This document shows, piece after piece, positions 10,475 through 35,172 of a stretch of 64,000 nt of DNA (its first letter is position 1; every line of letters begins with the position of its first letter). Location: positions 94,209 through 158,208 of the forward strand of contig CAWEKC010000001.1 of assembly GCA_963809665.1 (NCBI GenBank), read 5' to 3'. The notes under the pieces were generated by a model. That model did no database searches and was not told where the DNA came from. It saw only the letters and a list, made by a program, of their open reading frames with translations. This stretch comes from Candidatus Gottesmanbacteria bacterium (lineage in GTDB: Bacteria; Patescibacteriota; Microgenomatia; UBA10105; UBA927). A program made the translations under genes and the position numbers.

Positions 10475-11061
10475 AGGGACATTATACTGCGTTTCGTGCG
10501 CGTTTCAACGACACGATCCAATGCGCTTTGAATAAATCCCCGGACAAGAAGTTCCCCGGCACGATGCCGGGATAAACCGCGGGACATAAGATACCAGAGT
10601 TGTTCCGTGTCAACAGGCCCGCTAGCGGCGCCGTGCGTACAGTGCACATCGTCGGTAAGAATTTCAAGTGACGGCCGGCTCCGGGCGTATGCGTTGTCCG
10701 AAAGAAGTAAATTATCATTCCTCTGGTGTGCTATGGTTTTCCGGGCGACCTTCTCAACACGGATACTTCCGTCATACAGGCATTCTGCATGGCCGGACAG
10801 GACGGATTTTACCAGCACGTCGCTTGCGGTATGGGGTGCCTCATGGATCTGTATGGTGCGGACGGATACTTTCTCACTATTACTCCCGATGATAATACCC
10901 GTAACAGCAACTGAAGCCCCTGGCCCCACGAGCCTGACGCCGAGGGTAACCGCAGCGCTGCGTACGTTTACGGAGGCAAAAACTATTGAAAGCTTCGAGC
11001 CTGCTTTAACCGTAAAATTGTGATTATTTTCACCCTCTGTAACTTGTATAAACTTGTGCAT
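10459..11061 (-). CDS. sufD: Fe-S cluster assembly protein SufD, short form (C-terminal beta-helix region only)
   Basis: 200 aa. LLLSDNAYARSRPSLEILTDDVHCTHGAASGPVDTEQLWYLMSRGLSRHRAGELLVRGF matches the SufB/SufD C-terminal core. Placed between sufB and sufS as expected for SufD. Confidence 0.75.
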   Translation of the reverse strand: MHKFIQVTEGENNHNFTVKAGSKLSIVFASVNVRSAAVTLGVRLVGPGASVAVTGIIIGSNSEKVSVRTIQIHEAPHTASDVLVKSVLSGHAECLYDGSIRVEKVARKTIAHQRNDNLLLSDNAYARSRPSLEILTDDVHCTHGAASGPVDTEQLWYLMSRGLSRHRAGELLVRGFIQSALDRVVETRTKRSIMSLWEIT

Positions 11062-11103
11062 ATTTTAGTACAAACTAGTACAAACTAGTATAAACGACTA
11101 CAT

Positions 11104-16478: not shown

Positions 16479-17852
16479 ATGGCGAAAGAACGACCCGTAC
16501 GAAAAATTAATTCTTCAGCAAAGTCTCAGAATCATGACCTACACTTAACACATATGTCTCCTAAAGACCGAGCTGTTGCTGCTAAAAACTGGTTTTTTGC
16601 CAGATCACTGATTGTCAAAATCATTATAGTTATTGCGGTACTGGGAATCGGCTGGTTCGCAATTTCGAAATTCCGGGGCAATAGCGCAAAAACAACCTAT
16701 CAAACGGAGACGGTAACAAAAGGTACGCTTATCGTAACCGTGACGGCATCGGGAAATGTATCAAGCGCCAATAGCGCGGTTGTCAACACACAAGCGTCCG
16801 GAGTCGTGTCCCAAATCTTCGTGAAAAACGGCGACCAGGTTACATCCGGCACTGCGATAGCACAGGTTGACCTTGATATGAACGGAAAACAACGGGCTGA
16901 CCAGGCGTTGGCCTCGTATCAGAGCGCACAGAACCAGGTAAACAGCGCTCAGGCGAATATGTATTCGCTGCAATCAGCATTGTTCTCTAAATGGAAAATC
17001 TATACGGACATTGCGGAAAATTCCACATACCAAAATCCGGACGGGAGCGCGAATACAAGTAACCGGACACTCACACAGTTTACGACCGTACAGGATGACT
17101 GGCTCGCGGCCGAAGCGCAATATAAAAACCAGCAGGGCGTCGTAGCTGCCGCCCAAACATCGCTTTCAAGTGCCTGGGCGAATTACCAGCAAACGTCCCC
17201 GACAATTTATGCACCGATTACAGGTACTATCAGCGGACTGTCATTCCAGGTGGGATCGGTACTTACCGCACAGACCAGTTCAACAGGAACATCAACTAGC
17301 CAGCGTATTGCCAACATCAAAACATCGGCTGCGCCGGTGGCCATCGTCGATTTAAACGAGGTTGACGTACCAAAAGTCGTGGTAGGAGACAAAGCAACCC
17401 TGACGATGGATGCATTCCCCAATGAAACCTTTACGGGAAAAATCGTCAGCATCGATACCACCGGCTCCGTCTCATCCGGAGTAACAACATATCCGGCATA
17501 TATCAACTACGATTCTGCAATCGACGGAATTTATCCCAATATGGCGGTGGACGCAAGTATAATAACGACGGTAAAGGATAATGTTGTCCTCGTCCCGAAC
17601 GCTGCAGTCCAGACATCCACAAGCGGCCAGACGACCGTCCGCATAATGAAAAACGGACAGGTGAATACCGTTGATATCACCACCGGAGCAAGCAATGACA
17701 CGCAAACCGAAATTGTTTCAGGGGTCACAGAGGGCGATACCGTCGTCACCGGTGTAACGACCACGGGTACTACCGGCACATCAACGTCTCCGTTCAGCTC
17801 GTTCGGAGGCGGAGGAGGCGGAGGTTTCCGCGCGGTATCAGGAGGCCGGTAA
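16479..17852 (+). CDS. HlyD/MacA family periplasmic adaptor (membrane fusion protein)
   Basis: N-terminal TM anchor, long coiled-coil (QALASYQSAQNQVNSAQANMYSLQSAL...), lipoyl/beta-barrel segments. C-terminal Thr/Gly-rich tail ending GGGGGGG. Precedes MacB-like ATPase and FtsX permease. Confidence 0.75.
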   Translation: MAKERPVRKINSSAKSQNHDLHLTHMSPKDRAVAAKNWFFARSLIVKIIIVIAVLGIGWFAISKFRGNSAKTTYQTETVTKGTLIVTVTASGNVSSANSAVVNTQASGVVSQIFVKNGDQVTSGTAIAQVDLDMNGKQRADQALASYQSAQNQVNSAQANMYSLQSALFSKWKIYTDIAENSTYQNPDGSANTSNRTLTQFTTVQDDWLAAEAQYKNQQGVVAAAQTSLSSAWANYQQTSPTIYAPITGTISGLSFQVGSVLTAQTSSTGTSTSQRIANIKTSAAPVAIVDLNEVDVPKVVVGDKATLTMDAFPNETFTGKIVSIDTTGSVSSGVTTYPAYINYDSAIDGIYPNMAVDASIITTVKDNVVLVPNAAVQTSTSGQTTVRIMKNGQVNTVDITTGASNDTQTEIVSGVTEGDTVVTGVTTTGTTGTSTSPFSSFGGGGGGGFRAVSGGR

Positions 17853-17854
17853 AT

Positions 17855-18586
17855 ATGGCCACCCCAAAACCTATTATTCAGGTTACCCACCTGTCAAAGG
17901 TATATACAACTGAATCCGTTGAAACTACGGCGGTTGATGACGTTTCTTTTACGATTAAAAAAGGTGAATTTGTCGCCATTATGGGACCTTCGGGATCGGG
18001 AAAATCCACGCTTATGCATATCCTGGGGGCGCTGGACCGTCCGACAAGCGGCACGTATATTCTCGACGGGGAAAATGTGGAGAATCTTTCTGATGATCAA
18101 CTCGCGGATATCCGGAATAAAAAAATCGGTTTCGTATTCCAGGCGTTTAATCTGCTTCCCCGTACGACGACCATGAAGAATGTCATGCTGCCGATGATGT
18201 ATGCAGGAGTACCGAAGGCGGAGCGTCAGGAAACAGCAAAAAAATTTCTTGAAATGGTAGGACTGGGCAACCGGCTCTATCACACCTCCAACCAAATCTC
18301 CGGAGGCCAGCAGCAGCGGGTCGCTATCGCACGTGCACTGGTTCTAAATCCGGCACTCCTTCTTGCCGATGAACCGACCGGCAATATTGCAACCACACAG
18401 GCAGAAGAAATAATGGCTATTTTCCAGAAGTTAAATAGTGAGGGACATACGATCGTCATGATTACGCATGAACCGGATATCGCCGAACATGCTAAGCGTG
18501 TGATATACGTCCGTGACGGAAAAATAGTGAAAGACGGAGACGGACATACACAGCGAAAGGCACGGTTTACCTATGGAACTGACTGA
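17855..18586 (+). CDS. MacB/LolD-type ABC transporter ATP-binding protein
   Basis: GPSGSGKSTLMHILGALDRPTSG, ISGGQQQRVAIARAL, LLLADEPTGN. Confidence 0.9.
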   Translation: MATPKPIIQVTHLSKVYTTESVETTAVDDVSFTIKKGEFVAIMGPSGSGKSTLMHILGALDRPTSGTYILDGENVENLSDDQLADIRNKKIGFVFQAFNLLPRTTTMKNVMLPMMYAGVPKAERQETAKKFLEMVGLGNRLYHTSNQISGGQQQRVAIARALVLNPALLLADEPTGNIATTQAEEIMAIFQKLNSEGHTIVMITHEPDIAEHAKRVIYVRDGKIVKDGDGHTQRKARFTYGTD

Positions 18587-19796
18587 ACTCATAGTCGAAA
18601 GTCTGCAAACTCTGAGAACTAATACACTCCGGACCGGTTTGGCAATTTTGGGTATTGTTATCGGTATCGGCAGCGTGATCGCCCTCGTTTCCCTGGGTGA
18701 GGCAACCCAAGCGTCAGTACAAAGCCAAATCCAGTCGCTCGGCGCAAATCTTCTGACGGTCCAGCCGTCCGCCCAAAGAACCGGTGCGGTCCAGGGCGCT
18801 TTCGGCGGGGGCACATCACTCACGCTCTCCGATGCCAAGGCAATCGAAACTTCATCACAGATAACACTCATCCAAAACGTTTCTCCGGAATTAAGCAGAC
18901 GCACACAAGTAACGACGGGTACCAAGAACACCAATACACAAATCATCGGTGTGACACCGGCATATGAAACCGTTCATAAAGTGACGGTTGAATCCGGTTC
19001 TTTTATAACGACCCGTGATGTTGACGGAATTACCAAGGTTGCCGTCATCGGCCCTCAGGTGGTCACGGATCTCTTCGGCGCCGGCACGGCACCTATCGGC
19101 CAGACTATACGCATAAGCGGACAAACATTCAGGATTGTCGGTATTACCCAGTCCAAAGGCGGATCGGGATTCCAAAACCAGGACGATCTCATATATGTTC
19201 CTCTCACCGTTGCGCAAAAACAGCTCTTCGGCGTCGATTATTTAAGTTCCATAGCGCTTGAGGCAAAAAGTTCCGATGTAATGACCCAGGCTCAAAATCA
19301 GGTCGGATATTTTCTTTTGGCACGGCATAAATTTAACACTCCCGCTCAGGCGGATTTCTCGATATTTTCCCAGCAGGATATCCTCAACACCGCAAGTTCT
19401 ATAACAGGGACATTCACATCATTATTGTCCGGCATTGCTGCAATTTCACTCATTGTCGGCGGTATAGGAATTATGAACATCATGCTTGTCACCGTAACGG
19501 AACGGACGCGGGAAATAGGTTTACGGAAAGCCCTGGGCGCCAAAAAACGGACAATAACAGCTCAATTCTTGATGGAATCCATCATGCTCACGTTTGCGGG
19601 AGGAAGTATCGGTATCATTCTGGGTATTTTAACTTCTTATATTCTCTCCAGAATCGTCGGGTTCGGTTTTGTTATGTCATTTTACGCAATCGGCCTGGCA
19701 TTTGTCGTGTCCGCAGCAATCGGTATTCTTTTCGGCTGGTACCCTGCTAAAAAAGCCTCGGATTTACAACCCATCGAAGCACTGCGGTATGAGTAA
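18573..19796 (+). CDS. MacB/FtsX-family ABC transporter permease
   Basis: 407 aa. N-terminal TM, large periplasmic domain, C-terminal FtsX 3-TM bundle (GIGIMNIMLVTVTERTREIGLRKALGA). Overlaps the ATPase gene by 14 nt. Confidence 0.85.
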   Translation: MELTELIVESLQTLRTNTLRTGLAILGIVIGIGSVIALVSLGEATQASVQSQIQSLGANLLTVQPSAQRTGAVQGAFGGGTSLTLSDAKAIETSSQITLIQNVSPELSRRTQVTTGTKNTNTQIIGVTPAYETVHKVTVESGSFITTRDVDGITKVAVIGPQVVTDLFGAGTAPIGQTIRISGQTFRIVGITQSKGGSGFQNQDDLIYVPLTVAQKQLFGVDYLSSIALEAKSSDVMTQAQNQVGYFLLARHKFNTPAQADFSIFSQQDILNTASSITGTFTSLLSGIAAISLIVGGIGIMNIMLVTVTERTREIGLRKALGAKKRTITAQFLMESIMLTFAGGSIGIILGILTSYILSRIVGFGFVMSFYAIGLAFVVSAAIGILFGWYPAKKASDLQPIEALRYE

Positions 19797-19809
19797 TTGT
19801 TTTTTTGTC

Positions 19810-19830
19810 ATCCCCGACTCGATCGGGGAT
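19810..19830. repeat. GC-rich palindromic hairpin ATCCCCGA-CTCGA-TCGGGGAT (intergenic, after the FtsX permease gene)
   Basis: 8-bp perfect stem. The TTTTTTT tract is upstream rather than downstream. Related in sequence to the hairpins at 20482 and 54287. Confidence 0.45.
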
Positions 19831-19876
19831 CTGCCTTTCAGTCAATCCTCAGATAATTTCAATAATATGTATGTAA

Positions 19877-20359
19877 ATGAAAGGTGGTGATATAGATATA
19901 AAAAATAATTTTGTTTTAATTATTATTCTCTCACTCCTTGTCGGTGGCGGTATTGGTTTCTTCGGCGGAATGCAATACCAAAAAGGTCAACGATCTGCGG
20001 CATTTGGACAGTTTACAAACGGCCAATTCGGAGCCCGCGCAGGTACCGGCGCGCTAGGACTGCGCGGGAGGAATGGGAACGGAGCCGTGGGAACGATTCT
20101 GAGTGCCGATGCCAATTCCATAACGGTCAAGCTCGCCGAAGGCGGCTCAAAAATAGTTTTGTTAACAGCTTCCACATCATTCAATAAAGCAACAGCGGCA
20201 ACGGCAGGTGATCTTGCTGTAGGCGGGACTGTCGCTGCATTCGGTACGGAAAATTCAGACGGAAGTATAACGGCAAGTAATGTTCAGTTAAATCCGCAGA
20301 TGCGTGGCCCGAACGGACCAAGTGGTTCAAGCGGAGCAAGCGGCGCGGCAACACCGTAA
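19877..20359 (+). CDS. hypothetical signal-anchored secreted protein (Gly/Ala-rich beta domain)
   Basis: 160 aa. N-terminal TM (FVLIIILSLLVGGGIGFFGG). Central region GTILSADANSITVKLAEGGSKIVLLTASTSFNKA...VAAFGTENSDGSITASNVQL resembles a small beta-barrel domain seen in DUF5666-like proteins. Follows the MacAB-FtsX genes. Confidence 0.4.
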   Translation: MKGGDIDIKNNFVLIIILSLLVGGGIGFFGGMQYQKGQRSAAFGQFTNGQFGARAGTGALGLRGRNGNGAVGTILSADANSITVKLAEGGSKIVLLTASTSFNKATAATAGDLAVGGTVAAFGTENSDGSITASNVQLNPQMRGPNGPSGSSGASGAATP

Positions 20360-20481
20360 GCATTTTCTCAGTTAAAGGTAGTAGTCTACCTTTGCTCCAC
20401 GTTCTTTTGAGCAGCATGAACGGACGCTTTGAAAGTATGTGAAGCGATCCGATAGTAAAGATGTATCGTGATCAAAGATGG

Positions 20482-20500
20482 CCCCGACGTAACGTCGGGG
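20482..20500. repeat. GC-rich palindromic hairpin CCCCGACG-TAA-CGTCGGGG (terminator-like)
   Basis: Perfect 8-bp stem followed by TTGTCGTATTTT on +. Lies between the convergent 19877..20359 (+) and SDR (-) genes. Confidence 0.5.
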
Positions 20501-20513
20501 TTGTCGTATTTTC

Positions 20514-21200
20514 TCAACGTACCATCTTCTTCATCCATTCATGTGCGATGAATTCGGGTTTTCCGGTTTCGATAGCCTTAACGATTAATTTAGCAATATG
20601 CTCCGGAGGATCTGCCGGCGGGATTTTCCCTCCCCCGTCCCAGGATATCCGTATTTCTTTTCCTTTGATTGTATTCTTTTCAAAATTTGTATCCGTGATA
20701 TAGGGATAGATAACGGATACGGTGATATGATCTTCCTTTAATTCTTCACGGGCTGTGAGCGACAGACCGGCAAGCGCACGCTTGAGGGAAGAATATCCGC
20801 CCATATTGGGCAGAGACATGAGGGCAGTAGCACTGCTGATATTAATGATCACCCCACCCCCGACCTTACGCATGTACGGAATAACGAGCTGCATGGCCCG
20901 CAGCGGCCCGACAACATCAAGATTAAATATATCCTGAAATTTCTCCGGATCAAGATATTCAATCGCGCCGTCATACCCGCGGCCGGCATTATTCACCAAA
21001 ATATCTATACGTCCGAACCGTTTTATTGTGTTTTTAACTACCCGCTCAATATCGTGCGGTTTTGTCATATCCGCGACTACCGGACCGTGACGGGAAACCG
21101 ATACGACGGTTGCTCCTTTTTGAGCAAGCAACTGCGCCGTTGCTTTTCCGATACCGCTGGATGTACCGGTAACGATAGCGACTTTCCCTTTAGGATTCAT
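20514..21200 (-). CDS. SDR family short-chain dehydrogenase/reductase
   Basis: Start taken at MNPKGKVAIVTGTSSGIGKATA (TGxxxGIG Rossmann motif). NNAG, catalytic YSSLKRA (YxxxK). The track ORF is extended upstream into bcp. Confidence 0.8.
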   Translation of the reverse strand: MNPKGKVAIVTGTSSGIGKATAQLLAQKGATVVSVSRHGPVVADMTKPHDIERVVKNTIKRFGRIDILVNNAGRGYDGAIEYLDPEKFQDIFNLDVVGPLRAMQLVIPYMRKVGGGVIINISSATALMSLPNMGGYSSLKRALAGLSLTAREELKEDHITVSVIYPYITDTNFEKNTIKGKEIRISWDGGGKIPPADPPEHIAKLIVKAIETGKPEFIAHEWMKKMVR

Positions 21201-21618
21201 ATGATGCCAGATCCCGGAGAATTTCTCCTGCGTGAACGGTGGGATTAACGTTCTTATAAAATTTAGTAATTTCACCCTTCGGATCAATGAGATATGTGAT
21301 GCGCCGCGTACCGAGCGGCCCCTGTGCATGGTACGCCTTAATTACTTCCTTTGATTCATCACTGAGTATCGGAAAATTCAGATGATACTTTTGGGCAAAT
21401 TTTTTATGGGAAGTTACGGAATCCTTTGATACGCCCAGAATAACCACTCCGTGTTTCTGAAGCTGGTCGAGCGAGTCACGGAACTTACACGCTTCTATGG
21501 TACAGCCGGGGGTGTCGTCTTTGGGATAAAAATACAGGACAATCCATTTACCCCGGTACTGTTTCAATGTGTGGACTGAATCGTTTTGATCATGCAGGGA
21601 AAAATCTTTTGTTTTCAT
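21190..21618 (-). CDS. bcp: thioredoxin-dependent peroxiredoxin Bcp
   Basis: 142 aa. YFYPKDDTPGCTIEACKFRD is the peroxidatic Cys motif (PxDxTxxC) of the Bcp/PrxQ family. Confidence 0.85.
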   Translation of the reverse strand: MKTKDFSLHDQNDSVHTLKQYRGKWIVLYFYPKDDTPGCTIEACKFRDSLDQLQKHGVVILGVSKDSVTSHKKFAQKYHLNFPILSDESKEVIKAYHAQGPLGTRRITYLIDPKGEITKFYKNVNPTVHAGEILRDLASYES

Positions 21619-21697
21619 ATATATATTATACCGCTCCTTATCAAGGATCGGAGCTTATTCTCAGCAAATATTCAGTATGCTCAGGTATGGTAACCGT

Positions 21698-22198
21698 ATG
21701 AAAAAAGTCCTCCTCTCGGGTTTTGTTGTTTTTACCTTTATCGGGTATGCCCTGCAGCAACGGGTGGATACGGAACATATCCAGGCTGTTGTCCCCGCTG
21801 TTTTACCTGCCTCAACACCAATACCTCTGCAGCCGACATCCCAACCAACAGCCAGCCAGCCCACAGCCGGCACACCACCGCCCGTACCGACGGCGACACC
21901 CGCACAAACATCCGGTCAGTACCGGAACGGCCAATATACCGGGATTGTCGCTGATGCCTACTACGGAAACGTACAGGTGAAGGCAATAATAACAAACGGG
22001 AAAATTTCCGATGTTCAATTTTTGCAGTATCCCAATGACCGGCAGACTTCGCAGATGATTAATTCCCAGGCGATGCCGTACCTCACACAGGAAGCAATAC
22101 AGGCTCAGAGCGCACAGGTTGACGGGGTGACAGGCGCCACGGCAACAAGCCAGGCATTTATCCAATCGCTCTCGTCCGCACTTAGCCAGGCGAAATAA
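21698..22198 (+). CDS. secreted FMN-binding domain protein with ApbE flavinylation motif
   Basis: Start at MKKVLLSGFVVFTFIG (signal anchor). Pro/Thr/Gln-rich linker. C-terminal FMN_bind domain carrying VDGVTGATATSQAF (D-x-x-T-G-A-T, the Thr-FMN attachment motif used by ApbE). Confidence 0.75.
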   Translation: MKKVLLSGFVVFTFIGYALQQRVDTEHIQAVVPAVLPASTPIPLQPTSQPTASQPTAGTPPPVPTATPAQTSGQYRNGQYTGIVADAYYGNVQVKAIITNGKISDVQFLQYPNDRQTSQMINSQAMPYLTQEAIQAQSAQVDGVTGATATSQAFIQSLSSALSQAK

Positions 22199-22201
22199 TA
22201 T

Positions 22202-22936
22202 ATGAGACAGACGAAGTTAATTATGGATATGCCGGTCATTGTGGAAATTACAGATCACGATAAACAGGAAATCTTCAATTCACTGTTTGAATATTTTCAT
22301 TACGTAGATAACACATTCAGCACGTTTAAAAAAACGAGCGAAATTACTAAAATAAATACCGGAGTTCTCAGCGAATCGGAGTATAGTCCCGATATGAAAA
22401 CAATACTCCGTCTGGCCGGGCAAACGAAAAAGGAAACATCCGGTTATTTTGATATCCTACATGACCGCAAGATTGACCCGTCGGGTATCGTGAAAGGCTG
22501 GGCAATCCGTAACGCCGCAGAAATGCTACACCGCGCCGGCTACGCCGATTTTTATGTGGAAGCGGGCGGCGACATAGAAGTGTCAGGCAACAACCGTGAA
22601 GGAAAGGCTTGGACCATCGGCATTCGTAATCCCTTCAACGTACATGAAATAGTAAAACGAGTCGTACTTCATAATCTCGGAATAGCTACCTCGGGAACCT
22701 ATGAACGGGGAAAACATATATACAACCCAAAAACGGATTCTCCCGTTGATGAAATCGTCAGTCTCACCGTCATCGGCCCGAACATCCTTGATGCGGACCG
22801 GTATGCAACCGGAGCATTTGCCATGGGGCGTCAGGGGATCCGGTTTATTGAGACCCTGAAAGGTTTTGAGGGATATATGATAGACACGCACGGCGTTGCG
22901 ACATGGACGGGCGGATTCGGAAAGTATGTCGTATGA
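22202..22936 (+). CDS. apbE: FAD:protein FMN transferase ApbE
   Basis: 244 aa. ApbE family core (ILHDRKIDPSGIVKGWAIRNAAEML, YVEAGGDIEV, GIATSGTYERG). Short form. Stop overlaps the next gene's ATG (ATGA). Confidence 0.8.
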   Translation: MRQTKLIMDMPVIVEITDHDKQEIFNSLFEYFHYVDNTFSTFKKTSEITKINTGVLSESEYSPDMKTILRLAGQTKKETSGYFDILHDRKIDPSGIVKGWAIRNAAEMLHRAGYADFYVEAGGDIEVSGNNREGKAWTIGIRNPFNVHEIVKRVVLHNLGIATSGTYERGKHIYNPKTDSPVDEIVSLTVIGPNILDADRYATGAFAMGRQGIRFIETLKGFEGYMIDTHGVATWTGGFGKYVV

Positions 22937-24450
22937 ATGCAATTGATGAATTCTTAAATACAATAACGATGTACAGATTACTTCTGTACTACCTTATCAT
23001 CCTCGTTATCGTCGCTGCTTTTTTCTCACTGTTCGGCATATTATCATTTTCATTTTTTCCGTTTGTCATTTCCGTTTTGTTTCTGTTAGCCGTATCACTT
23101 CTCGTTAACGACGTTTTCGCACGCGTGTTTGAGGCACAGACAAATGTAGAATCCGTCTATATATCCGCACTCATTCTTGCCCTTATTATCTCGCCTGCCA
23201 ATACCCTTCATGGCCTGATATTTTTGGGATGGGCAGCGACACTGACGTGTGTCTCGAAATATATCCTCGCTATCGGCAAAAAGCACGTATTCAATCCCGT
23301 CGCAATTGCAGTAGTCCTTACCGCGTATATATTGGGTGATTCCGCATCGTGGTGGATTGCCACTCTCCCGATGCTGCCGGTCGTACTCGTCGGCGGCCTG
23401 CTGATTGTAAAGAAAATACAACGGACCGATTTATTTTTCAGCTTTCTTGCAACCGCGTCCGTCGTTATTCTTACGATTGCCGCTTTTAACGGGACCAACA
23501 ATCTTTCTATTTTCCGGAAAATATTCGTTGAATCCCCGATTATATTTTTCGCGTCCGTCATGCTTACCGAACCCCTGACGACTCCGCCTACTTCACGCCT
23601 GCGGATCTGGTACGGTATACTCGTCGGCGCGTTATTTGCTCCTCAACTCCATCTGGGACCCGTGTTCTCAACGCCGGAATTGGCGCTCGTTGTAGGAAAT
23701 ATCTTCTCATATATCGTCAGTCCCAAGGAAAAATTGATGCTCAAACTGAAAGAAGTAATACCGATCGGGCAAAACCAATATGAGTACGTATTTATCCCGG
23801 ACAAGCCGTTTTCATTTACCCCCGGACAATATATGGAATGGACTCTCGGACACTCCAGTCCCGATGACCGCGGAAACCGCCGGTACTTTACCATAGCATC
23901 TTCCCCTACCGAACGTGCTGTGCGCCTGGGTATCCGGTTTAATACGCCTCAGAGTTCATTTAAAAAATCGTTATTTACGATGGATATCGGCGGCAGGATT
24001 GCAGCAGGCCAGCGGAGCGGAGATTTTGTATTGCCGGAGAATCCGAAACAAAAACTTGTTTTTATTGCGGGCGGGATAGGTATCACACCATACCGGAGTA
24101 TGATTAAATATCTTCTCGATTCGAAACAACAACGGGATATCGTCCTCATTTACTCAAATAGAACGGCACCGGAAATTGTTTACCGCGATATAGTTGACCA
24201 GGCCCGGAACGCGTTGGGTATGAAAACGTTGTACGCTCTCACCGACCGCGAACATATACCGTCCGGTTGGACCGGCCGTGCCGGCAGGATTGACGGCAAT
24301 GTCATTACGGAGGAAATACCGGATTACAGGGAACGGTTGTTTTATATATCAGGACCAAGTTCACTGGTTGACGGGTTCCGGCAGATTCTCGGGGATATCG
24401 GGATTCACCGGAACAACATAAAAACCGATTTTTTCCCGGGTTTTGCGTAA
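22933..24450 (+). CDS. polytopic membrane protein fused to ferredoxin-NADP reductase-like FAD/NAD(P)-binding domain
   Basis: About 290-aa N-terminal domain with 6 or more TM helices. C-terminal FNR module with RYFTIASSP (RxYS/T FAD motif) and FIAGGIGITPYRSMI (GGxGxxP NAD(P) motif). No bis-His heme spacing seen. Confidence 0.7.
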   Translation: MNAIDEFLNTITMYRLLLYYLIILVIVAAFFSLFGILSFSFFPFVISVLFLLAVSLLVNDVFARVFEAQTNVESVYISALILALIISPANTLHGLIFLGWAATLTCVSKYILAIGKKHVFNPVAIAVVLTAYILGDSASWWIATLPMLPVVLVGGLLIVKKIQRTDLFFSFLATASVVILTIAAFNGTNNLSIFRKIFVESPIIFFASVMLTEPLTTPPTSRLRIWYGILVGALFAPQLHLGPVFSTPELALVVGNIFSYIVSPKEKLMLKLKEVIPIGQNQYEYVFIPDKPFSFTPGQYMEWTLGHSSPDDRGNRRYFTIASSPTERAVRLGIRFNTPQSSFKKSLFTMDIGGRIAAGQRSGDFVLPENPKQKLVFIAGGIGITPYRSMIKYLLDSKQQRDIVLIYSNRTAPEIVYRDIVDQARNALGMKTLYALTDREHIPSGWTGRAGRIDGNVITEEIPDYRERLFYISGPSSLVDGFRQILGDIGIHRNNIKTDFFPGFA

Positions 24451-24478
24451 CGAATAGTTTTCAGCTTCTTCTCAGAAA

Positions 24479-24489
24479 TGTGGTATACT
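24479..24489 (+). promoter_or_regulatory. extended -10 promoter (TGtGGTATACT) directly upstream of the response-regulator ATG
   Basis: TATACT at 24484-24489 preceded by TGG/TG. ATG at 24501, which implies a 5' UTR of a few nt and no SD. Same TGGTATACT motif as the rnpB promoter. Confidence 0.35.
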
Positions 24490-24500
24490 ATAGCCTCACT

Positions 24501-25181
24501 ATGCGGATTCTTGTCGTCGAAGACGAACACAAAATCGCAAACTCCATAAAAAAAGGCCTCGAACAGGAATCGTATGCCGTTGACGTCACATATACGGGTA
24601 CGGACGGATTTGATCTTGCAAGTACCGAAGAATACGATGTCATCGTTCTGGACCTCCTTTTGCCGGGAATGGATGGCGTCACCATGTGCAAAAAACTACG
24701 GAGCGAAAGTATCAATACCCCGATTCTCATGCTCACCGCCAAAGGGCAAACTACTGACAAGGTCGAAGGTCTGAATGCCGGAGGAGACGATTATCTCACC
24801 AAGCCATTTGCGTTCGAAGAATTACTCGCGCGCATCCGGGCGCTGGTAAGGAGACCACGAAAAGCCGTCGGTACGACTCTCCGAGTCGAAGATTTGACGC
24901 TGGATACGTTATCATATGAAGTGAAACGGTCGGATAAAGTCGTTCAGCTTTCCAGCCGTGAATTTGCTCTTTTGGAGTATCTCATGAGACATCCCAACAG
25001 CACGCTTACCAAAGATCAGATCATCGGACATGTTTGGAATTATGATGCAGACATATTACCCAATACTGTAGAGGTGTACATCGGGTATCTCCGGAATAAA
25101 CTGGATAAACCGTTTCCGCGGGTGTCGCCGCTTATCCATACAATCCGCGGATTCGGGTATAAGTTGGGAAAAAATACCTAA
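24501..25181 (+). CDS. OmpR-family response regulator
   Basis: MRILVVEDEHKIANSIKKGL receiver domain with phospho-Asp context VIVLDLLLPGMDG. C-terminal winged-helix (trans_reg_C). Confidence 0.85.
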   Translation: MRILVVEDEHKIANSIKKGLEQESYAVDVTYTGTDGFDLASTEEYDVIVLDLLLPGMDGVTMCKKLRSESINTPILMLTAKGQTTDKVEGLNAGGDDYLTKPFAFEELLARIRALVRRPRKAVGTTLRVEDLTLDTLSYEVKRSDKVVQLSSREFALLEYLMRHPNSTLTKDQIIGHVWNYDADILPNTVEVYIGYLRNKLDKPFPRVSPLIHTIRGFGYKLGKNT

Positions 25182-25182
25182 T

Positions 25183-26184
25183 ATGTTTCGTTCAGCCCGT
25201 ATTAAATTAACAGCCTGGTATCTCCTGATTATCATGCTCGTGAGCGTGTCTTTTAGTGCGGCTATTTTCCGCGTCCTTACGACTGAATTGGACCGCATCG
25301 TGCAGGTTGAAAGATTAGAGCTGGAACATAGATTTCCTCAATTTCCTATTTTATTAAATCCTGATCTCCTGGCAGAGACAAAACAACGTCTTTTATTCAG
25401 ACTCGTGGTTATAAATTTGCTGATTTTAGCCGGATCGGCATGGGCCGGCTATTTACTCGCAGGACGCACATTAAATCCAATCAAAGATATGGTTGACGAA
25501 CAAAACCGTTTCATTACCGACGCGTCTCATGAACTGCGCACACCACTCACATCCCTCAAATCCGAAATTGAAGTGAATTTGCGGGACAAGAACCTTTCAC
25601 TCGACCAGGCAAAAAATTTACTCAAAAGTAATCTCGAAGAAGTGAATTCCCTTCAGGTTTTATCCGACGGTCTTATCCGGCTGACGCAATATCAAAAAGG
25701 GCACAGCAATTTGTCAATTGATGATGTGTCCCTTGCCGATGTTTCACGGGAAGCCGTCCGTAAAGTGACAAACGCCGCCAAAGAAAAAAAGATAACGATT
25801 GTCAATGACATCCCCTCTGCCCATATTCAGGGAAATCAAACCGCCCTGATTGAACTGCTCGTTATCTTTTTGGATAATGCGATAAAATACAGCCCGAAAC
25901 AAAGTCCGGTCCGGTTATCCAGTAAAAAGTCAGACGGCCGCATCCGTATCGTCATCGCCGATGGCGGTATCGGGATTGCCGAAAAAGATGTCCCGCATCT
26001 TTTTGACCGTTTTTACCGCGCTGATAAATCAAGAACGAAAACTGACGTATCAGGCTATGGATTGGGACTGTCTATCGCAAAACAAATTGTAGACCAGCAT
26101 AACGGAAGTATACGGGTAACAAGTAAATTCAATAAAGGCACAACGTTCACGATAGAACTTCCGCTAAAACATCATGACCTCTAA
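25183..26184 (+). CDS. sensor histidine kinase (HisKA + HATPase_c)
   Basis: H-box ASHELRTPLTSL, G-boxes DGGIGIAEKD and GYGLGLSIAKQIV. N-terminal TM, short sensor region. Confidence 0.85.
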   Translation: MFRSARIKLTAWYLLIIMLVSVSFSAAIFRVLTTELDRIVQVERLELEHRFPQFPILLNPDLLAETKQRLLFRLVVINLLILAGSAWAGYLLAGRTLNPIKDMVDEQNRFITDASHELRTPLTSLKSEIEVNLRDKNLSLDQAKNLLKSNLEEVNSLQVLSDGLIRLTQYQKGHSNLSIDDVSLADVSREAVRKVTNAAKEKKITIVNDIPSAHIQGNQTALIELLVIFLDNAIKYSPKQSPVRLSSKKSDGRIRIVIADGGIGIAEKDVPHLFDRFYRADKSRTKTDVSGYGLGLSIAKQIVDQHNGSIRVTSKFNKGTTFTIELPLKHHDL

Positions 26185-27199
26185 ATATTTATTAGCAGTG
26201 TTTCTTGTAGTAGTTGCCGCATCTGCCGGATTTTATTATTTCCGGAAACAACCGGTAGCACCGGATACCGCGTCTACTCCCGTTGCTTCAACGGAAAATC
26301 CGTTATCCATTGCCGCTATGCGCGCCCGTTCGTATCCCGGAAGCGATCTCGTTATCGAGCAAACGCTTGCTGATGGCAGTAATTACCATCAATATATCGC
26401 TTCCTATATGTCCGACGGTTTAAAAATTTACGGCTTGCTGACCGTTCCCGACGGCACAAAGCCGCCGACCGGGTGGCCGGTTATCATCTTTAACCACGGA
26501 TATATTCCGCCGGCGCAATACCGTACAACAGAACGATATGTCGCATACGTTGATGCTTTCGCGCGTGATGGGTATATCGTTTTTAAATCCGATTATCGCG
26601 GCCACGGCAGTTCCCAGGGCCAGCCGGAAAGTGCGTACTATTCTCCTGCATATGCGGTTGATGTACTCAATGCCCTTGCGTCCGTAAAACGGTATAAAGA
26701 CGCGGATCCTAACCGTATCGGCATGTGGGGACACAGTATGGGAGGGAATATCACGCTGCGGGATATTATTGTTGATCCCAAAGACATAAAAGCGGCGGTC
26801 ATCTGGGGCGGCGTCGTGGGATCGTATTACGATCTTACGAATAACTGGCAGCGGCGGGTGAGCTACCGGCCTCCCCCTCCGGAACTTGCTAACCGCAATA
26901 GCGGAAGGCAACAGTTCATATCCATGTACGGCCCGCCTGCCACGTCATCGGCATTTTGGCAATCTATAGATCCCACTGCACATCTAACCGACATAACAGC
27001 CCCCATACAGCTTCATACCGGCGGGGCGGACGAGGAAGTGCCGGTATTATTTTCCCAAAATTTATTTACATCTCTCCAAAAGCTGGGAAAAATTGCAGAA
27101 TACTATAACTATCCCGGCGGGGATCATAATATATCTTCGCCGGATTTTGAAGTTGCCATGCAGCGGTCCGTTGATTTCTTTAATACATACCTGAAGTAA
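26174..27199 (+). CDS. alpha/beta hydrolase (prolyl oligopeptidase/dienelactone hydrolase-like)
   Basis: Signal anchor. Nucleophile elbow GMWGHSMGG, C-terminal D/H (GGDHN). Confidence 0.7.
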   Translation: MTSKYLLAVFLVVVAASAGFYYFRKQPVAPDTASTPVASTENPLSIAAMRARSYPGSDLVIEQTLADGSNYHQYIASYMSDGLKIYGLLTVPDGTKPPTGWPVIIFNHGYIPPAQYRTTERYVAYVDAFARDGYIVFKSDYRGHGSSQGQPESAYYSPAYAVDVLNALASVKRYKDADPNRIGMWGHSMGGNITLRDIIVDPKDIKAAVIWGGVVGSYYDLTNNWQRRVSYRPPPPELANRNSGRQQFISMYGPPATSSAFWQSIDPTAHLTDITAPIQLHTGGADEEVPVLFSQNLFTSLQKLGKIAEYYNYPGGDHNISSPDFEVAMQRSVDFFNTYLK

Positions 27200-27246: not shown

Positions 27247-27756
27247 ATGCAGAGATCGGTTGCACGCCTTAAAGGAATCGGATTTATTATCTGGCATGCC
27301 AGACATGAATTTTATCATGTGCTTCTGGGACTTATGTGGGCGTGGTTTCTGAGGGAAATTTGGCAGCAATTTAACACCCGTTGGATCACCATATCAGTCA
27401 TCGGATCTCTCATTCCGGATCTTGACCATTTCTTCTATTTTTTCGTTTATGGAAAGAAAGACGTCTATACCAAACAGGTATTAAGCTTTTTAAAAGGCCG
27501 TGAATGGCGGATACTGACGAAATATCTTGAAACAGGGCACAAATATCAGACTGATCTTGCTACCCACAATTTTTATTTCGTGTTATTTCTCTTCCTTGTG
27601 TCTCTCGCATCATTTTTCTATGACTGGAAAGTGGGTGTTATACTGTTCGGCGCAATGCTCACACATTATCTGTTCGACATTTGTGATGATATCCTGACCC
27701 TTGGGTATGTTAATGTTAACTGGAAGCGCGGATGGAAACGTTTTAAAACGGATTAG
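27247..27756 (+). CDS. YdjM/DUF457-like membrane-bound metal-dependent hydrolase family protein
   Basis: 169 aa, His-rich N-terminus, IGSLIPDLDHFFYF (LPDxDH motif), multiple TM helices. Confidence 0.5.
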   Translation: MQRSVARLKGIGFIIWHARHEFYHVLLGLMWAWFLREIWQQFNTRWITISVIGSLIPDLDHFFYFFVYGKKDVYTKQVLSFLKGREWRILTKYLETGHKYQTDLATHNFYFVLFLFLVSLASFFYDWKVGVILFGAMLTHYLFDICDDILTLGYVNVNWKRGWKRFKTD

Positions 27757-28727
27757 AAACGACGCCTGTTCATCCTAAGCAATAAGTAAGCGCCGATGCC
27801 GGCACACACAACCCCGAGAGCAGTTGCCCCGATCATAATATAACCAATGGGTGAAACCGATCCGCCGACCGGGAGCGCGGGCGTAATAAATTCCACCGGT
27901 ATGGGGGTAGGCGTATCCGCACTTACCTCAGGTGTGTCCGTCAGGATGACGTCCGACTCAACGGGCAAACTTCCCGACGTATCTGCCGGTCCGGGTGTCG
28001 GCGTGGAAGCCACACCTGCAATAGCGGATAGTTCGTTTGATAAGTTGCCCGGTGTGCAACCATTTACGGCACGGACGGCAAAAAAATATTTCTTTCCCGT
28101 CGCGAGACCCCCGACGGTAAACGCTGTCGTCCCCTGCCCGCCCATATTGGGCACTCCGTATATATAATTTCCTGATGAGAGACCGTAAGAAAGCAGATAA
28201 TATGTCACGGGATTAGCTGCATCTGCCCAAGTAAGCGTAATTGCGTGAGCACCTGACGATTCTGCGGAGGTCAATTGCACGGTACTTCCCGGCGCTGTAT
28301 CCGTACACGCACCGGGTGCCGGAGTCGGGGTGGGAGTCGGGCTAGCCGTGCCCGGCTGGAAAAACAAAACAGACCATGTCAGCTGAGTATTGCCTGTTGA
28401 CACGTCGGTCACGGTAATCTGGACGGATCCGACCGTCGTCGTTTTCATTTGCGTTGTGATAGTTCCTGAGCCGTCAAGCGTCAGAGATGACGGGTTAAAT
28501 GACGCAGTTGAGTCAGACGAAGTTATATGTATGGAATCGTTTGACGTTACTGTATTCCCGCCGGCATCTTTGAGGACAATGGTAACCGTAGACACGGAGG
28601 AGCCATCTGCCGCGGCGGCGGTACTGGTTATCGTCGATTTCGTCTGATCCGGAGGATTGCCGGCAAATACCGGCAAACAGATAGCAAAAAAAATAGGTAG
28701 AAATAAAATATATACGAGCCGTCTCAT
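27753..28727 (-). CDS. cell-surface protein with bacterial Ig-like and FN3-like domains and C-terminal TM anchor
   Basis: Start at MRRLVYILFLPIFFAICLPVFA (signal). Thr/Ser-rich Ig-like domain, FN3-like segment (TWADAANPVTYYLLSYG...KYFFAVRAVN). C-terminal TM plus RMNRRRF. Confidence 0.6.
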   Translation of the reverse strand: MRRLVYILFLPIFFAICLPVFAGNPPDQTKSTITSTAAAADGSSVSTVTIVLKDAGGNTVTSNDSIHITSSDSTASFNPSSLTLDGSGTITTQMKTTTVGSVQITVTDVSTGNTQLTWSVLFFQPGTASPTPTPTPAPGACTDTAPGSTVQLTSAESSGAHAITLTWADAANPVTYYLLSYGLSSGNYIYGVPNMGGQGTTAFTVGGLATGKKYFFAVRAVNGCTPGNLSNELSAIAGVASTPTPGPADTSGSLPVESDVILTDTPEVSADTPTPIPVEFITPALPVGGSVSPIGYIMIGATALGVVCAGIGAYLLLRMNRRRF

Positions 28728-28908
28728 TACATTTTCAATAACCCAAGCGCCCGATATATAAGAAGTGCAGGCCATACGATGGCTTTAAGGACACCGAATA
28801 CCCCGTCCCAAAATGTTGCGGCGTGCTGGATAAAATACAACGCCGCTCCGATAAACCCCAACCCGTACACTGCCCCTCCCCCTGCTCCTGCGTGCATATG
28901 TTTCATAC
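28727..28908 (-). CDS. small hydrophobic membrane protein (59 aa), translationally coupled to the downstream surface protein
   Basis: MKHMHAGAGGGAVYGLGFIGAALYFIQHAATFWDGVFGVLKAIVWPALLIYRALGLLKM. Its TAA stop overlaps the ATG of the surface-protein gene (TAATG). The longer track ORF would run into the tRNA. Confidence 0.45.
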
Positions 28909-29004: not shown

Positions 29005-29078
29005 TGCGGGATCGTATAATGGTAGTACGCATCCCTCTGGAGGATGTTATCTTGGTTCGAATCCAAGTCCCGCAGCCA
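29005..29078 (+). tRNA. tRNA-Gln (anticodon CTG)
   Basis: 74 nt with encoded CCA. Acceptor TGCGGGA/TCCCGCA (U1-A72, discriminator G73, as in bacterial tRNA-Gln). D-stem CGTA/TACG, anticodon stem CATCC/GGATG with loop CTCTGGA (U33, anticodon CUG), T-arm CTTGG-TTCGAAT-CCAAG. Confidence 0.85.
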
Positions 29079-32942: not shown

Positions 32943-33803
32943 ATGAAATCCGGTATTGTCGCGCTTATCGGCCGGCCGAATGTCGGCAAATCCACTCTCC
33001 TGAATACTCTTTTGGGGCATAAGGTGTCAATTACCAGCCCCAAACCGCAAACCACACGGTTTAATATTCAGGCCGTATACGAGGATGACCGCGGGCAGAT
33101 CATTTTTGTTGATACGCCCGGTATATTCGGCAGAACTCCCGATACGCTTTCCAAACGGATCAACGCACGTGCGGAAGGATCGTTGGTTAGCGGCATTGAT
33201 GTGGTCGTCTATATGGTTGACCACACCCGGCAGCGCGATACCGAGGAAAATAAAGCACTGGGTATCGTACGTAAATTCAACGGGCCGAAAATTCTCGTCA
33301 TCAATAAAACAGACATCCATACCCCTACTCACATCGTGCAGTATAAATTTTTGGAAGATGAGTTTACGACGGTGATTATGCTTTCCGCACTTGCTCACAA
33401 AAACACTAATATTCTGTTATCAACTCTGTTTGACCTCCTGCCTGAGGGAAAAGAATTAGTGGACAGAACTACACTGGCTCAACCGGCACTGAATATGGAC
33501 AGTAAATTATTTATCTCCGAAATTATCAGGGAAAAGGCATTTTTATTTTTGCGTGATGAAGTACCTTATACCCTTGCGTCTGCTGTCGATGAAGTCACTG
33601 AGCGTGATAACGGGACCGTCTATATCAAAGCGAAAATTATTACGAGCGCCGACCGGTATAAGGCGATGATCATAGGGCATGCAGGCGCAATGGTCAAAGA
33701 AATAAGCCAGGCGGCACGAAAAGAATTGGAAACGGCAACTAGCAAAAAAATCTACCTGGAGTTGACGGTTGTTACCGACCCTCATTGGATGGAATACGTA
33801 TAA
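32943..33803 (+). CDS. era: GTPase Era
   Basis: GIVALIGRPNVGKSTLLN (G1), DTPG (G3), NKTD (G4), C-terminal KH domain. Confidence 0.9.
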   Translation: MKSGIVALIGRPNVGKSTLLNTLLGHKVSITSPKPQTTRFNIQAVYEDDRGQIIFVDTPGIFGRTPDTLSKRINARAEGSLVSGIDVVVYMVDHTRQRDTEENKALGIVRKFNGPKILVINKTDIHTPTHIVQYKFLEDEFTTVIMLSALAHKNTNILLSTLFDLLPEGKELVDRTTLAQPALNMDSKLFISEIIREKAFLFLRDEVPYTLASAVDEVTERDNGTVYIKAKIITSADRYKAMIIGHAGAMVKEISQAARKELETATSKKIYLELTVVTDPHWMEYV

Positions 33804-35172
33804 ACGTTTCTTCCTTCCCTAAAATTTCCAGTGATTCCAATAACGGCGGTCCCACTGTTTTGCCGGTGACTGCAACACGGAGTTCCATAAATACATCCTT
33901 TGCTTTCAGTTTTGCAGCTTCTGCGGAATAACGGATCGATTGTTCCATGGCCTCATGTGTCCAAGCGCTTGCCTCAAGAGCTTTCCGTCCTACTTCAAGA
34001 ATTTCTTTTGCCAACGGCCTCTCATATGTTGCCGGACGTACAAAGAAAAATCCGGCAAGCGACTCAAATTCCGCCAATGTTTTCATCCGCTCAACCAATA
34101 GCGGAAGTATTTTCGCGATGTAGTTTTCCGGATATTTATTATTATAAAATTCGTACAGAACACGTATTAACTTTTTACTGTTCATGTGCCGGATATACTC
34201 CCCGTTCATCCAGCGCAGTTTTTCCGTATCGAAAATCGGGGCCGTCGTCTGCAGGTCTTCAAGACGGAATTTAGAGATCATATCGTCAACGGAAAAAACG
34301 TCCTGACCGCCGGGGTACGACCACGCCATAGTCGCAAGATAATTTTTGATCGCATCGGGCAGAAAGCCTTTTGATTTATACTCTGATACCCACACCGGAT
34401 TTTTCCGCTTACTTAACTTACTCCGGTCGGGATTCCGCAGTACCGATACATGCGCAATAAGCGGTACATCCCATCCAAAAAATTTGTAGAGAAGAATATG
34501 TTTAGGCGTTGAAGAAATCCATTCTTCACCGCGGATTATATGGGTAATCTTCATGATATGGTCATCAACAACCACCCCCAGATGATACGTGGGATACCCG
34601 TCGGATTTCAGAATGACCTGATCGTCAATCAGTTTGTTTTCAAAAGATATATCTCCCCGGATCACATCATGAAATATCGTCGTCCCCTCATCCGGCACAT
34701 CAAGACGGATAACGTATTTCTCCCCTGCCGCTATACGTTTTTTTGATTCACGTCTGTCGATTTTTTTACATAACCCGTCATACATCGGGGGTAAATGTCT
34801 GGCTTCCAGGTCTTTTCGCATTTGATCCAGTCTCTGCGGTGTACAGAAACAGTAATAGGCGTGACCTTTCGCGACAAGCGCTTCCGCATGTTTTTTATAG
34901 ATCCCGAGCCGTTCGGACTGGCGGTATGGGGCATATGGTCCGCCGATATCGGGCCCTTCGTCATACGGAATCCCTAACCACATGAGGGATGCCAGTATCC
35001 TATTTTCAGATCCTTTAACGAGCCGCGTGCGGTCTGTATCCTCCACACGGATAATAAATTGACCGTTATTAACTTTGGCAAATACGTAGTTTATAAGTGC
35101 AGTGTAAGCATTCCCGATGTGCAGGTCCTCGCCTGTCGGAGACGGAGCAATACGGGTTCGCACAGCACTCAT
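33772..35172 (-). CDS. gltX: glutamate--tRNA ligase
   Basis: RIAPSPTGEDLHIGNAYTAL (HIGH motif), KLSKR (KMSKS motif), 466 aa. 3' end overlaps era by 32 nt (convergent). Confidence 0.9.
   Translation of the reverse strand: MSAVRTRIAPSPTGEDLHIGNAYTALINYVFAKVNNGQFIIRVEDTDRTRLVKGSENRILASLMWLGIPYDEGPDIGGPYAPYRQSERLGIYKKHAEALVAKGHAYYCFCTPQRLDQMRKDLEARHLPPMYDGLCKKIDRRESKKRIAAGEKYVIRLDVPDEGTTIFHDVIRGDISFENKLIDDQVILKSDGYPTYHLGVVVDDHIMKITHIIRGEEWISSTPKHILLYKFFGWDVPLIAHVSVLRNPDRSKLSKRKNPVWVSEYKSKGFLPDAIKNYLATMAWSYPGGQDVFSVDDMISKFRLEDLQTTAPIFDTEKLRWMNGEYIRHMNSKKLIRVLYEFYNNKYPENYIAKILPLLVERMKTLAEFESLAGFFFVRPATYERPLAKEILEVGRKALEASAWTHEAMEQSIRYSAEAAKLKAKDVFMELRVAVTGKTVGPPLLESLEILGKEETFIRIPSNEGR

Follow-up and report, generated by a model that had tools for sequence, protein, structure and literature searches.

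Flavinylation gene clusters of the 'NQR/RNF-like' type, in which one protein carries both an NqrB/RnfD-like N-terminus and an NqrF-like NAD-binding C-terminus, were defined as a class in 2021, when 127 clusters were reported, mainly from Actinobacteria and from bacteria of the candidate phyla radiation (CPR), with VIT1 iron transporters encoded in six of them (PMC8238504). The complex from Ktedonobacter was subsequently modelled in 2024 using AlphaFold-multimer; in this work the flavinylation Thr of the membrane domain was found to be lost, the FMN subunit was docked on the extracytosolic face, and it was proposed that the covalent FMN of this partner docks into the vacant flavin site (PMC11334425). 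Here we compare these systems with a locus in a 64,000-nucleotide stretch of bacterial DNA (referred to throughout as the window). At 21698-26184, with coordinates as originally predicted, five genes lie on the plus strand and run in the same direction: a three-gene cassette encoding an FMN_bind protein, an ApbE flavin transferase and a fusion of a membrane domain to a ferredoxin-NADP-reductase-like (FNR) domain, followed by genes for an OmpR/PhoB-type response regulator and a histidine kinase. The cassette belongs to the NQR/RNF-like system; the statement in the original prediction that the fusion is not a standard named system was therefore wrong, and its idea that electrons pass from NAD(P)H to a covalent flavin outside the cell is that of the published model (PMC8238504; PMC11334425). 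We consider it probable that the cassette is a transmembrane electron-transfer member of this class and, in this lineage, one of four units that are preceded by a common DNA box and stand under this two-component system. The cassette class itself is known; what is new here is its two-component and exporter context, together with a concrete DNA motif, and an ApbE that has no export signal.

The first cassette product, a protein of 166 residues when read from the ATG at 21698, matches Pfam FMN_bind (PF04205, E 4.9e-10) and, weakly, the NCBIfam model TIGR01947 rnfG (E 2e-6). Its residues 142-148 read DGVTGAT, the acceptor motif already picked out in the original prediction, and fit the flavinylation motif [DSN]-x-x-[ST]-G-A-[ST], which makes Thr-148 the predicted flavinylation acceptor. 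The N-terminus, in which MKK is followed by a hydrophobic stretch of 16 residues and then by a linker rich in Pro and Thr, thus has the signal-like character on which the original prediction had been made to depend, a call based on hydropathy only and not on a signal-peptide predictor. Amongst 80 related FMN_bind proteins the flavinylation motif is found in 76, and almost all have a hydrophobic, signal-like N-terminus. The second gene encodes an ApbE of 244 residues (PF02424, E 3e-42), whose alignment with E. coli ApbE (4xgw) opens where the mature domain begins; it lacks about 50 internal residues by comparison and keeps GKGYA-, TSG-, DP.TG.P- and ADA..TG-like blocks of that enzyme. In the 2021 survey such clusters were recognised by an ApbE (PF02424) and/or an FMN_bind (PF04205) gene, one or both with a predicted signal peptide, and the window cluster, with an ApbE and a signal-like FMN_bind protein, fits this description.

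The third gene overlaps the ApbE stop as ATGA (22933-22936), a coupling that had been noted from the sequence. Its open reading frame (ORF) gives 515 residues from 22903 and 505 from the ATGA start; since the homologues have 505-506 residues and open with M-x-x-ID-x-FLN from a start equivalent to 22933, we take the protein to be 505 residues long, which retains the architecture originally described and shortens its length. Its C-terminal half contains the RYFTIASSP and GGIGITPY blocks and matches the NAD-binding family PF00175 (E 1.9e-16), residues 268-501 are matched by NCBIfam models for flavin reductases and NqrF-type proteins, and its best sequence relatives in the PDB are the FAD/NADH domains of NqrF. 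For the N-terminal half, several lines of evidence were combined. Of more than 7,800 homologues of the fusion, the best 120 share the 505-residue architecture and most of these match both PF03116 and PF00175. When the N-terminal 270 residues of 38 relatives were turned into a profile and this was compared with all PDB sequences, only RnfD (8ahx_D, E 7e-6) and NqrB (E ~5e-3) were retrieved. An AlphaFold2 model of residues 1-270 (pLDDT 82, pTM 0.82) likewise returned, in a Foldseek search, RnfD and NqrB structures for all of its top 15 matches (TM 0.58-0.73), with urea transporters next at E>0.1; the full-length model (pLDDT 85.8) gave a top 50 of FNR-type structures only, NqrF among them. Because the PF03116 matches of its homologues, the family profile and the predicted fold agree, the N-terminal half is, by homology and modelling, an NqrB/RnfD-like domain, and the structure prediction called for by the original prediction thus points to an NqrB/RnfD fold. 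The protein does not look like a NOX or ferric-reductase (MsrQ-like) enzyme: the haem-binding Ferric_reduct domain (PF01794) has no match in it, and NOX structures were matched in the fold search only through the FNR part.

As in the modelled Ktedonobacter complex, the membrane domain of the fusion lacks the flavinylated Thr of NqrB and RnfD. No [ST]GA[ST] motif occurs anywhere in the fusion protein, in agreement with the 2024 study (PMC11334425), and the loop that carries the Thr in NqrB/RnfD has shrunk to a short conserved (N/G)-x-S-A-S-W-W, which in the window reads GDSASWW and follows the FNP helix. This stretch (23335-23355, residues ~135-141), a short loop placed on the extracytoplasmic side with a near-invariant S-A-[ST]-W-W, looks like a G-A-T site that has degenerated, its Gly replaced by Ser. 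When Lys and Arg positions were mapped onto the helices of the predicted model, nearly all of the clusters (R15, R63, K109/116/117, K160/161/R164, R222/224 and K265 onward) fell on the FNR side. This distribution is consistent with a topology in which both termini face inwards; with the NqrB/RnfD fold, it supports the cytoplasmic FNR domain of the original prediction, and the need of the NqrF-like domain for NAD(P)H also suggests a cytosolic location.

We then considered how the cassette is distributed, using the best 80 of at least 595 loci with homologues of the fusion from species-representative genomes. All 80 come from Patescibacteria/CPR lineages and Chloroflexota, and in about 68 of them the order FMN_bind, ApbE, NqrB/FNR fusion is kept on one strand, with spacings of a few nucleotides or 4-nt overlaps, so that the arrangement goes beyond chance and the three genes are syntenic in related genomes, as had been proposed for checking. 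The family thus appears much commoner in CPR and Chloroflexota than in the original count, with at least 595 species-level genomes against 127 clusters. Beyond the three cassette genes, no neighbour is common to more than ~22 of the 80 loci; those that recur encode ABC proteins, two-component systems, HlyD, an ECF sigma factor, MFS and MarR proteins, and none is a redox enzyme. An ECF-type sigma-70 gene lies about 1.4 kb upstream of FMN_bind in 12 of the 80 loci (e.g. L009 3899-4465), which suggests that other lineages may regulate the same cassette differently.

The two genes that follow the cassette encode an OmpR/PhoB-type two-component system, the regulator having Response_reg and Trans_reg_C domains and the kinase HisKA and HATPase_c domains. 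The kinase has two transmembrane helices separated by a loop of ~37 residues and no HAMP domain, which on sequence features places it with the intramembrane-sensing type; kinases of this type are often paired with FtsX-family exporters. The regulator's ATG (24501) is 50 nt past the cassette stop (24450), in line with the ~50 bp first reported, and a hairpin scan found no terminator-like site between the two. A generic sigma-70 promoter scan also gave nothing in this gap, because it demands a -35 hexamer.

The gap does contain, however, one of four copies of a direct-repeat box with an 11-bp period, TTYTCAG-N4-TTYTCAG, that precede four units in the window: the HlyD-ABC-FtsX exporter genes, the DUF5666 gene, the cassette, and the regulator, kinase and hydrolase genes (Table 1). 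The pattern TCAG-N7-TCAG has five matches in the 64 kb, both strands counted, where 0.95 would be expected, and the four on the plus strand are those upstream of the four units; a stricter form of the pattern has two matches in the window and none in 100 shuffles. Each of the four boxes is followed by a -10-like hexamer, which in these promoters (16512-16554, 19835-19877, 21658-21698 and 24458-24501) lies 6-11 nt before the ATG, so that the mRNAs would be leaderless or nearly so. The spacing also implies that the HlyD gene probably starts at the ATG at 16554 and not where its ORF opens, at 16479.

The box was noticed post hoc, upstream of FMN_bind and of the regulator gene in the window and in its closest relatives (73-83% identity; L161 and L163), which keep an identical gene order, and the pattern was therefore tested on loci outside its derivation. 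Against a chance expectation of 0.9% per upstream window, the exact box was found upstream of the regulator gene in 40 of 63 such kinase-anchored loci, of HlyD in 22 of 55 and of FMN_bind in 9 of 79. Regulator promoters have a regular layout (box, 7-9 nt, (G)TATAAT, 8-11 nt, ATG; modal box position -38), and the architecture of box 4 in the window is shared by 39 of 62 orthologous ones. Across the ~1.9 Mb of DNA retrieved, an ORF begins 28-75 nt after 124 of the boxes, and 107 of these stand before genes for the regulator (49), HlyD (35), FMN_bind (16) or DUF5666 (7), with two at most in any other labelled class. Since 107 of 124 precede four gene classes, we regard the box as a specific operator and not as a general promoter feature. 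For the cassette in particular, a box with no more than one mismatch lies at -60 to -15 of FMN_bind in 11 of 75 independent loci, where chance would give 0.85%; nearly all of the 11 are Patescibacteria/CPR-type, including those nearest to the window (L001-L005), the exception being L027 (Anaerolineae), and several have no two-component system within 8 kb. Outside these classes, the box was also seen before an fn3/Big_1/Invasin_D3 surface-protein gene (L161 15475, L162 11015 and L163 16037, minus strand), although not upstream of the window orthologue of this gene (27753-28775, minus strand), and single boxes stand before an FMN-reductase-like gene (L113) and a gene for a 480-residue membrane protein (L021, L139).

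Regulators of the OmpR/PhoB family classically bind to a pair of direct repeats that are spaced by one turn of the helix and overlap the -35 position. With a box at its own promoter, the regulator encoded here is the obvious candidate to bind it, and the cassette and the regulator gene share a predicted operator.

A number of observations weigh against the view that the cassette is an electron-transfer system wired to this two-component system. The assignment of the regulator to the box rests on its autoregulatory position, the pattern itself was derived after the fact, and 64 of the 75 cassette loci, those of Chloroflexota among them, have no box, so that the regulatory link must be lineage-specific. 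We also analysed 80 metagenomic loci with kinase orthologues (49-68% identity). The regulator gene precedes the kinase gene in 66 of 66, a HlyD-like gene follows it in 34 of 41, a MacB-type ABC ATPase is encoded downstream in 35 of 41 and DUF5666 is present in 22 of the 29 loci with enough flank, as against only 2 of 44 in which the flavinylation cassette adjoins the kinase. On these counts the conserved partner of the two-component system is the HlyD-ABC-FtsX-DUF5666 unit, which is seen in dozens of CPR metagenome contigs and lies just upstream in the window (16479-20359); the dedicated two-component system implied by the original prediction is not supported by this reciprocal comparison. With respect to the redox module, the membrane domain of the window fusion, scanned alone, has no Pfam match at E<=10, NQR2_RnfD_RnfE (PF03116) and Ferric_reduct included; of the Pfam checks first proposed, those for FMN_bind, ApbE and PF00175 gave matches and those for a membrane-domain family did not, its place in the class coming instead from its orthologues' PF03116 matches, the family profile and the fold. 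All-against-all clustering of neighbours across the 80 cassette loci revealed no conserved acceptor or redox partner, so that gene context does not point to a terminal acceptor. Finally, no experimental work on any member of the family was found in the literature.

The lack of an export signal in ApbE is a further point on the same side. The ApbEs known to work extracellularly are lipoproteins that the cell exports, and cytosolic ApbEs serve cytosolic substrates (PMC12052999). The window ApbE does not have the N-terminal signal peptide or lipoprotein box of the extracytosolic type, nor any other hydrophobic or transmembrane segment, and no export signal was found in the 66 related cassette ApbEs either, which are of 243-260 residues and start with MKQTK.IMGMP. 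The original description of a compact ApbE was accurate in this respect and incomplete, in that it did not register the absence of both signal peptide and lipobox. A hidden N-terminal extension is ruled out by the position of the ATG, 3 nt past the FMN_bind stop. Export of ApbE as a stop-codon read-through fusion with FMN_bind was also considered and rejected: the two genes are in frame in the window (TAA TAT ATG) and in only 11 of 64 loci, fewer than the one-third expected by chance. Signal-less ApbEs in this system drew no comment in either previous study (PMC8238504; PMC11334425), and the 2021 pipeline demanded a signal in just one target gene (PMC8238504). Extracytoplasmic flavinylation is thus not secure, because ApbE has no export signal either in the window or in the 66 relatives, and a signal-less enzyme with a substrate predicted to lie outside means that maturation or topology differs from that of Nqr and Rnf. 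The remaining possibilities are that the C-terminal motif receives its flavin in the cytoplasm, ahead of Sec export, that ApbE is exported by an unconventional route, or that the FMN_bind domain is cytoplasmic; across the family, then, one of two assumptions is in doubt, that maturation is extracytosolic or that the topology is as supposed.

The last of these possibilities can be developed into a different account of the complex, in which FMN_bind and its flavinylation are cytoplasmic, the N-terminus does no more than tether the subunit on the inner side of the membrane, and the complex serves as a membrane-bound cytoplasmic flavin reductase or feeds a membrane acceptor. Quinone synthesis is not known from CPR bacteria. 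FMN_bind begins with an n-region and an h-region arranged as in a Sec signal or anchor, followed by its Pro/Thr-rich linker, which also speaks for the outside, as do the periplasmic location of the homologues RnfG and NqrC (PMC8238504; PMC11334425) and the published AlphaFold-multimer model, which docks the subunit on the extracytosolic face (PMC11334425). In spite of the signal-less ApbEs of the window and its 66 relatives, and the precedent of cytosolic ApbEs for cytosolic substrates (PMC12052999), we therefore regard this account as very unlikely. The wiring can be questioned as well: the cassette might be expressed constitutively and work on its own, as an oxidoreductase that passes electrons from NAD(P)H to an extracellular acceptor and helps a fermenter, say, to regenerate NAD+ or to reduce iron, next to a two-component system that controls the ABC exporter only and was brought there by an accident of lineage rearrangement. 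It would fit such a role that in most genomes the three genes form a unit by themselves, that kinase orthologues sit in regulator-kinase-HlyD-ABC-FtsX-DUF5666 operons and beside the cassette in just the two loci already counted, and that VIT1 iron transporters occur in six clusters (PMC8238504). Against it stand the equal spacing of the operator before FMN_bind, the regulator gene and HlyD in the window, the recurrence of the box above chance at 11 of 75 independent cassette loci, some without an adjacent two-component system, and the lack of anything resembling a terminator between cassette and regulator; we think this alternative unlikely.

It could be argued, too, that the complex is a minimal redox-driven Na+/H+ pump, whose NqrB/RnfD-like domain couples electron flow from NADH to ion translocation and so provides a respiratory-like source of membrane potential. 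The modelled fold is the appropriate one, invariant polar and acidic intramembrane residues (N71, E73, S74, E213 and E249) are kept, and in a weak hidden Markov model alignment E73 falls opposite the N-E-G motif of NqrB, which we take to contain Glu-144, a residue implicated in Na+ transport. That alignment is not significant by itself, though, and NqrD/E or RnfA/E, which are central to models of pumping, are absent from the cluster, making a pump highly improbable.

The shared operator also changes how the two-component system is to be seen. From synteny alone it had first seemed unrelated to the cassette, a view that was revised once the operator was found before both. Our best reading, from the distribution of genes and boxes, is that in this lineage the cassette was recruited into the regulon of a two-component system whose ancestral target is the exporter/DUF5666 unit, and the regulatory link is probably secondary to, and shared with, the exporter module. 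The wiring originally proposed is accordingly upheld at the level of sequence, in altered form, running not by adjacency but through a shared and lineage-specific box before FMN_bind, the regulator gene, HlyD and DUF5666. Under this reading the box, 37-40 nt from each start codon, would stand in for the -35 element, and the regulator, once phosphorylated by the intramembrane-sensing kinase, most likely binds it and would turn on together the units HlyD-ABC-FtsX, DUF5666, FMN_bind-ApbE-NqrB/FNR and regulator-kinase-hydrolase; we infer this joint activation by the phosphorylated regulator.

What was computed directly comprises the domain identities, the folds, the synteny, the missing NqrB flavin site, the ApbE motif of the partner subunit, and the shared box with its enrichment; the path of electrons, with its direction and cofactors, is drawn by analogy from homologous Nqr/Rnf structures and the published model. 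NADH (or NADPH) would reduce an FAD bound non-covalently by the NqrF-like domain in the cytoplasm, and a flavin in the NqrB/RnfD-like domain, which has lost its covalent-FMN Thr loop, would carry the electrons on across the membrane. They would then reach the FMN that ApbE is predicted to attach to Thr-148 of the RnfG/NqrC-like subunit and, in a final step, would pass from this covalent FMN to an external acceptor encoded outside the conserved synteny.

The sharing of the box with an exporter, a DUF5666 protein and a secreted hydrolase suggests an inducible role in the envelope or in detoxification over one in housekeeping energy metabolism. CPR bacteria are regarded as having no respiratory chains, and any membrane redox module in this group bears on how NADH is balanced. 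A bolder proposal would have the complex as a minimal redox device of two subunits that spans the membrane, is driven by NADH and is induced by stress, the intramembrane-sensing kinase turning it on along with the exporter, with an FMN subunit that the signal-less ApbE flavinylates in the cytoplasm ahead of export and an NqrB-like domain that may move ions. We consider this proposal improbable; if true, its pre-export flavinylation would be a maturation route undescribed for any ApbE substrate, and ion movement would give a respiratory-like function to a 'non-respiring' cell.

Table 1 Features at and around the flavinylation cassette in the window.
Feature	Coordinates	Strand	Basis or remarks
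HlyD/YknX-like membrane-fusion protein	16479..17852	+	Pfam HlyD_D23, HlyD_3; ORF opens at 16479, start probably 16554
Box 1, TCTTCAGCAAAGTCTCAG	16512..16529	+	39 nt before ATG 16554 (HlyD)
ABC ATPase, MacB-type exporter	17855..18586	+	PF00005
MacB_PCD + FtsX permease	18573..19796	+	Pfam families and synteny
Box 2, CTTTCAGTCAATCCTCAG	19835..19852	+	39 nt before DUF5666 ATG
Membrane-anchored DUF5666 protein	19877..20359	+	PF18914, E 1.7e-7
Strong terminator-like hairpin closing the exporter/DUF5666 unit	20477..20505	+	13 pairs, 8 GC
Short-chain dehydrogenase (SDR)	20514..21200	-	After peroxiredoxin on the minus strand
Peroxiredoxin (AhpC/TSA, BCP-like)	21190..21618	-	Divergent from cassette
Box 3, TTCTCAGCAAATATTCAG	21658..21675	+	37 nt before FMN_bind ATG; followed by TATGGT
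FMN_bind (RnfG/NqrC-like) subunit, predicted signal-anchored	21698..22198	+	PF04205; TIGR01947 rnfG; motif
ApbE flavin transferase, compact, no signal peptide	22202..22936	+	PF02424
NqrB/RnfD-like membrane domain (~1-265) fused to NqrF-like FAD/NAD(P)H domain (~267-505)	22933..24450	+	PF00175, profile, Foldseek
Box 4, TTTTCAGCTTCTTCTCAG	24458..24475	+	40 nt before regulator ATG; followed by TGgTATACT
OmpR/PhoB-type response regulator	24501..25181	+	Response_reg + Trans_reg_C
Histidine kinase	25183..26184	+	HisKA + HATPase_c; transmembrane segments
Alpha/beta hydrolase (S9/S15-like), signal-anchored	26174..27199	+	Probably co-transcribed with the kinase gene

The glutamyl-tRNA synthetase encoded at 33772-35172 shares 84% identity with a protein of Candidatus Gottesmanbacteria, and from such relatives the source appears to be an ultra-small bacterium of a Gottesmanbacteria-like CPR lineage. 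Elsewhere in the window lie genes for a two-subunit POR/2-oxoacid:ferredoxin oxidoreductase (5731-8303), a SUF Fe-S assembly cluster (8967-12468; SufS, SufB/D and SufC-like) and one tRNA gene (29005-29075), along with housekeeping genes, and none of the window genes that were annotated is respiratory, the same picture as had been drawn originally. The hydrolase gene, which overlaps the kinase stop by 11 nt and in relatives follows either the kinase or FtsX, behaves as a movable member of the two-component/exporter module. The DUF5666 protein is Gly-rich and contains neither Cys nor His. The peroxiredoxin and SDR pair is found at the corresponding position in L161 and L163, the closest relatives; a -10-like TATAAT for peroxiredoxin lies ~30 nt from box 3 on the opposite strand, and box 3 might act both ways.

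When the locus is set beside known systems, it comes closest to the NQR/RNF-like clusters (PMC8238504; PMC11334425), with which it shares the FMN_bind protein, the ApbE, the NqrB/RnfD-NqrF fusion, the missing flavinylation Thr and a range that includes CPR and Chloroflexota (Ktedonobacter); it differs in that its membrane domain alone falls below detection by PF03116, and in the two papers nothing ties the clusters to two-component systems, MacB-type exporters or DUF5666. With Na+-NQR (NqrA-F) and Rnf (RnfA-E,G) it has in common an NqrB/RnfD fold, an NqrC/RnfG-type FMN_bind subunit with [ST]GA[ST], an NqrF domain and maturation by ApbE. It does not, however, have NqrA/D/E, RnfA/B/C/E or Fe-S centres, and no NqrD/E, RnfA/E or other Nqr/Rnf subunit was found among the genes called within ~9 kb on the window contig and in the closest relatives. 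Moreover, the B/D-like domain has no covalent FMN site, the B-like and F-like parts are fused, and the predicted flow is one-way outward rather than semicircular. Listeria flavin-based extracellular electron transfer (Ndh2, EetA/B, PplA, FmnB) resembles it in its monoderm setting, ApbE-family enzyme, surface FMN_bind protein and export of electrons from NADH, but uses the quinone pool and a type-II NADH dehydrogenase where the cassette would use an NqrB-like flavin conduit fused to its dehydrogenase, and its FmnB is an exported lipoprotein whereas the cassette ApbE has no signal.

On the regulatory side, BceRS-BceAB, YknWXYZ-like pumps and HssRS-HrtAB are two-component systems paired with FtsX/MacB-type ABC exporters. 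The window resembles them in having a short-loop intramembrane-sensing kinase and an OmpR-type regulator by a presumably induced HlyD/ABC/FtsX exporter, and its predicted regulon differs from theirs in also taking in DUF5666, the alpha/beta hydrolase and, in this lineage, the redox module. As in the pho-box promoters of PhoB/OmpR regulators, two direct repeats 11 bp apart replace the -35 element above a good -10 hexamer; the window boxes differ in the repeat itself (TTYTCAG) and in their very short leaders, with the -10 ending 6-11 nt before the ATG.

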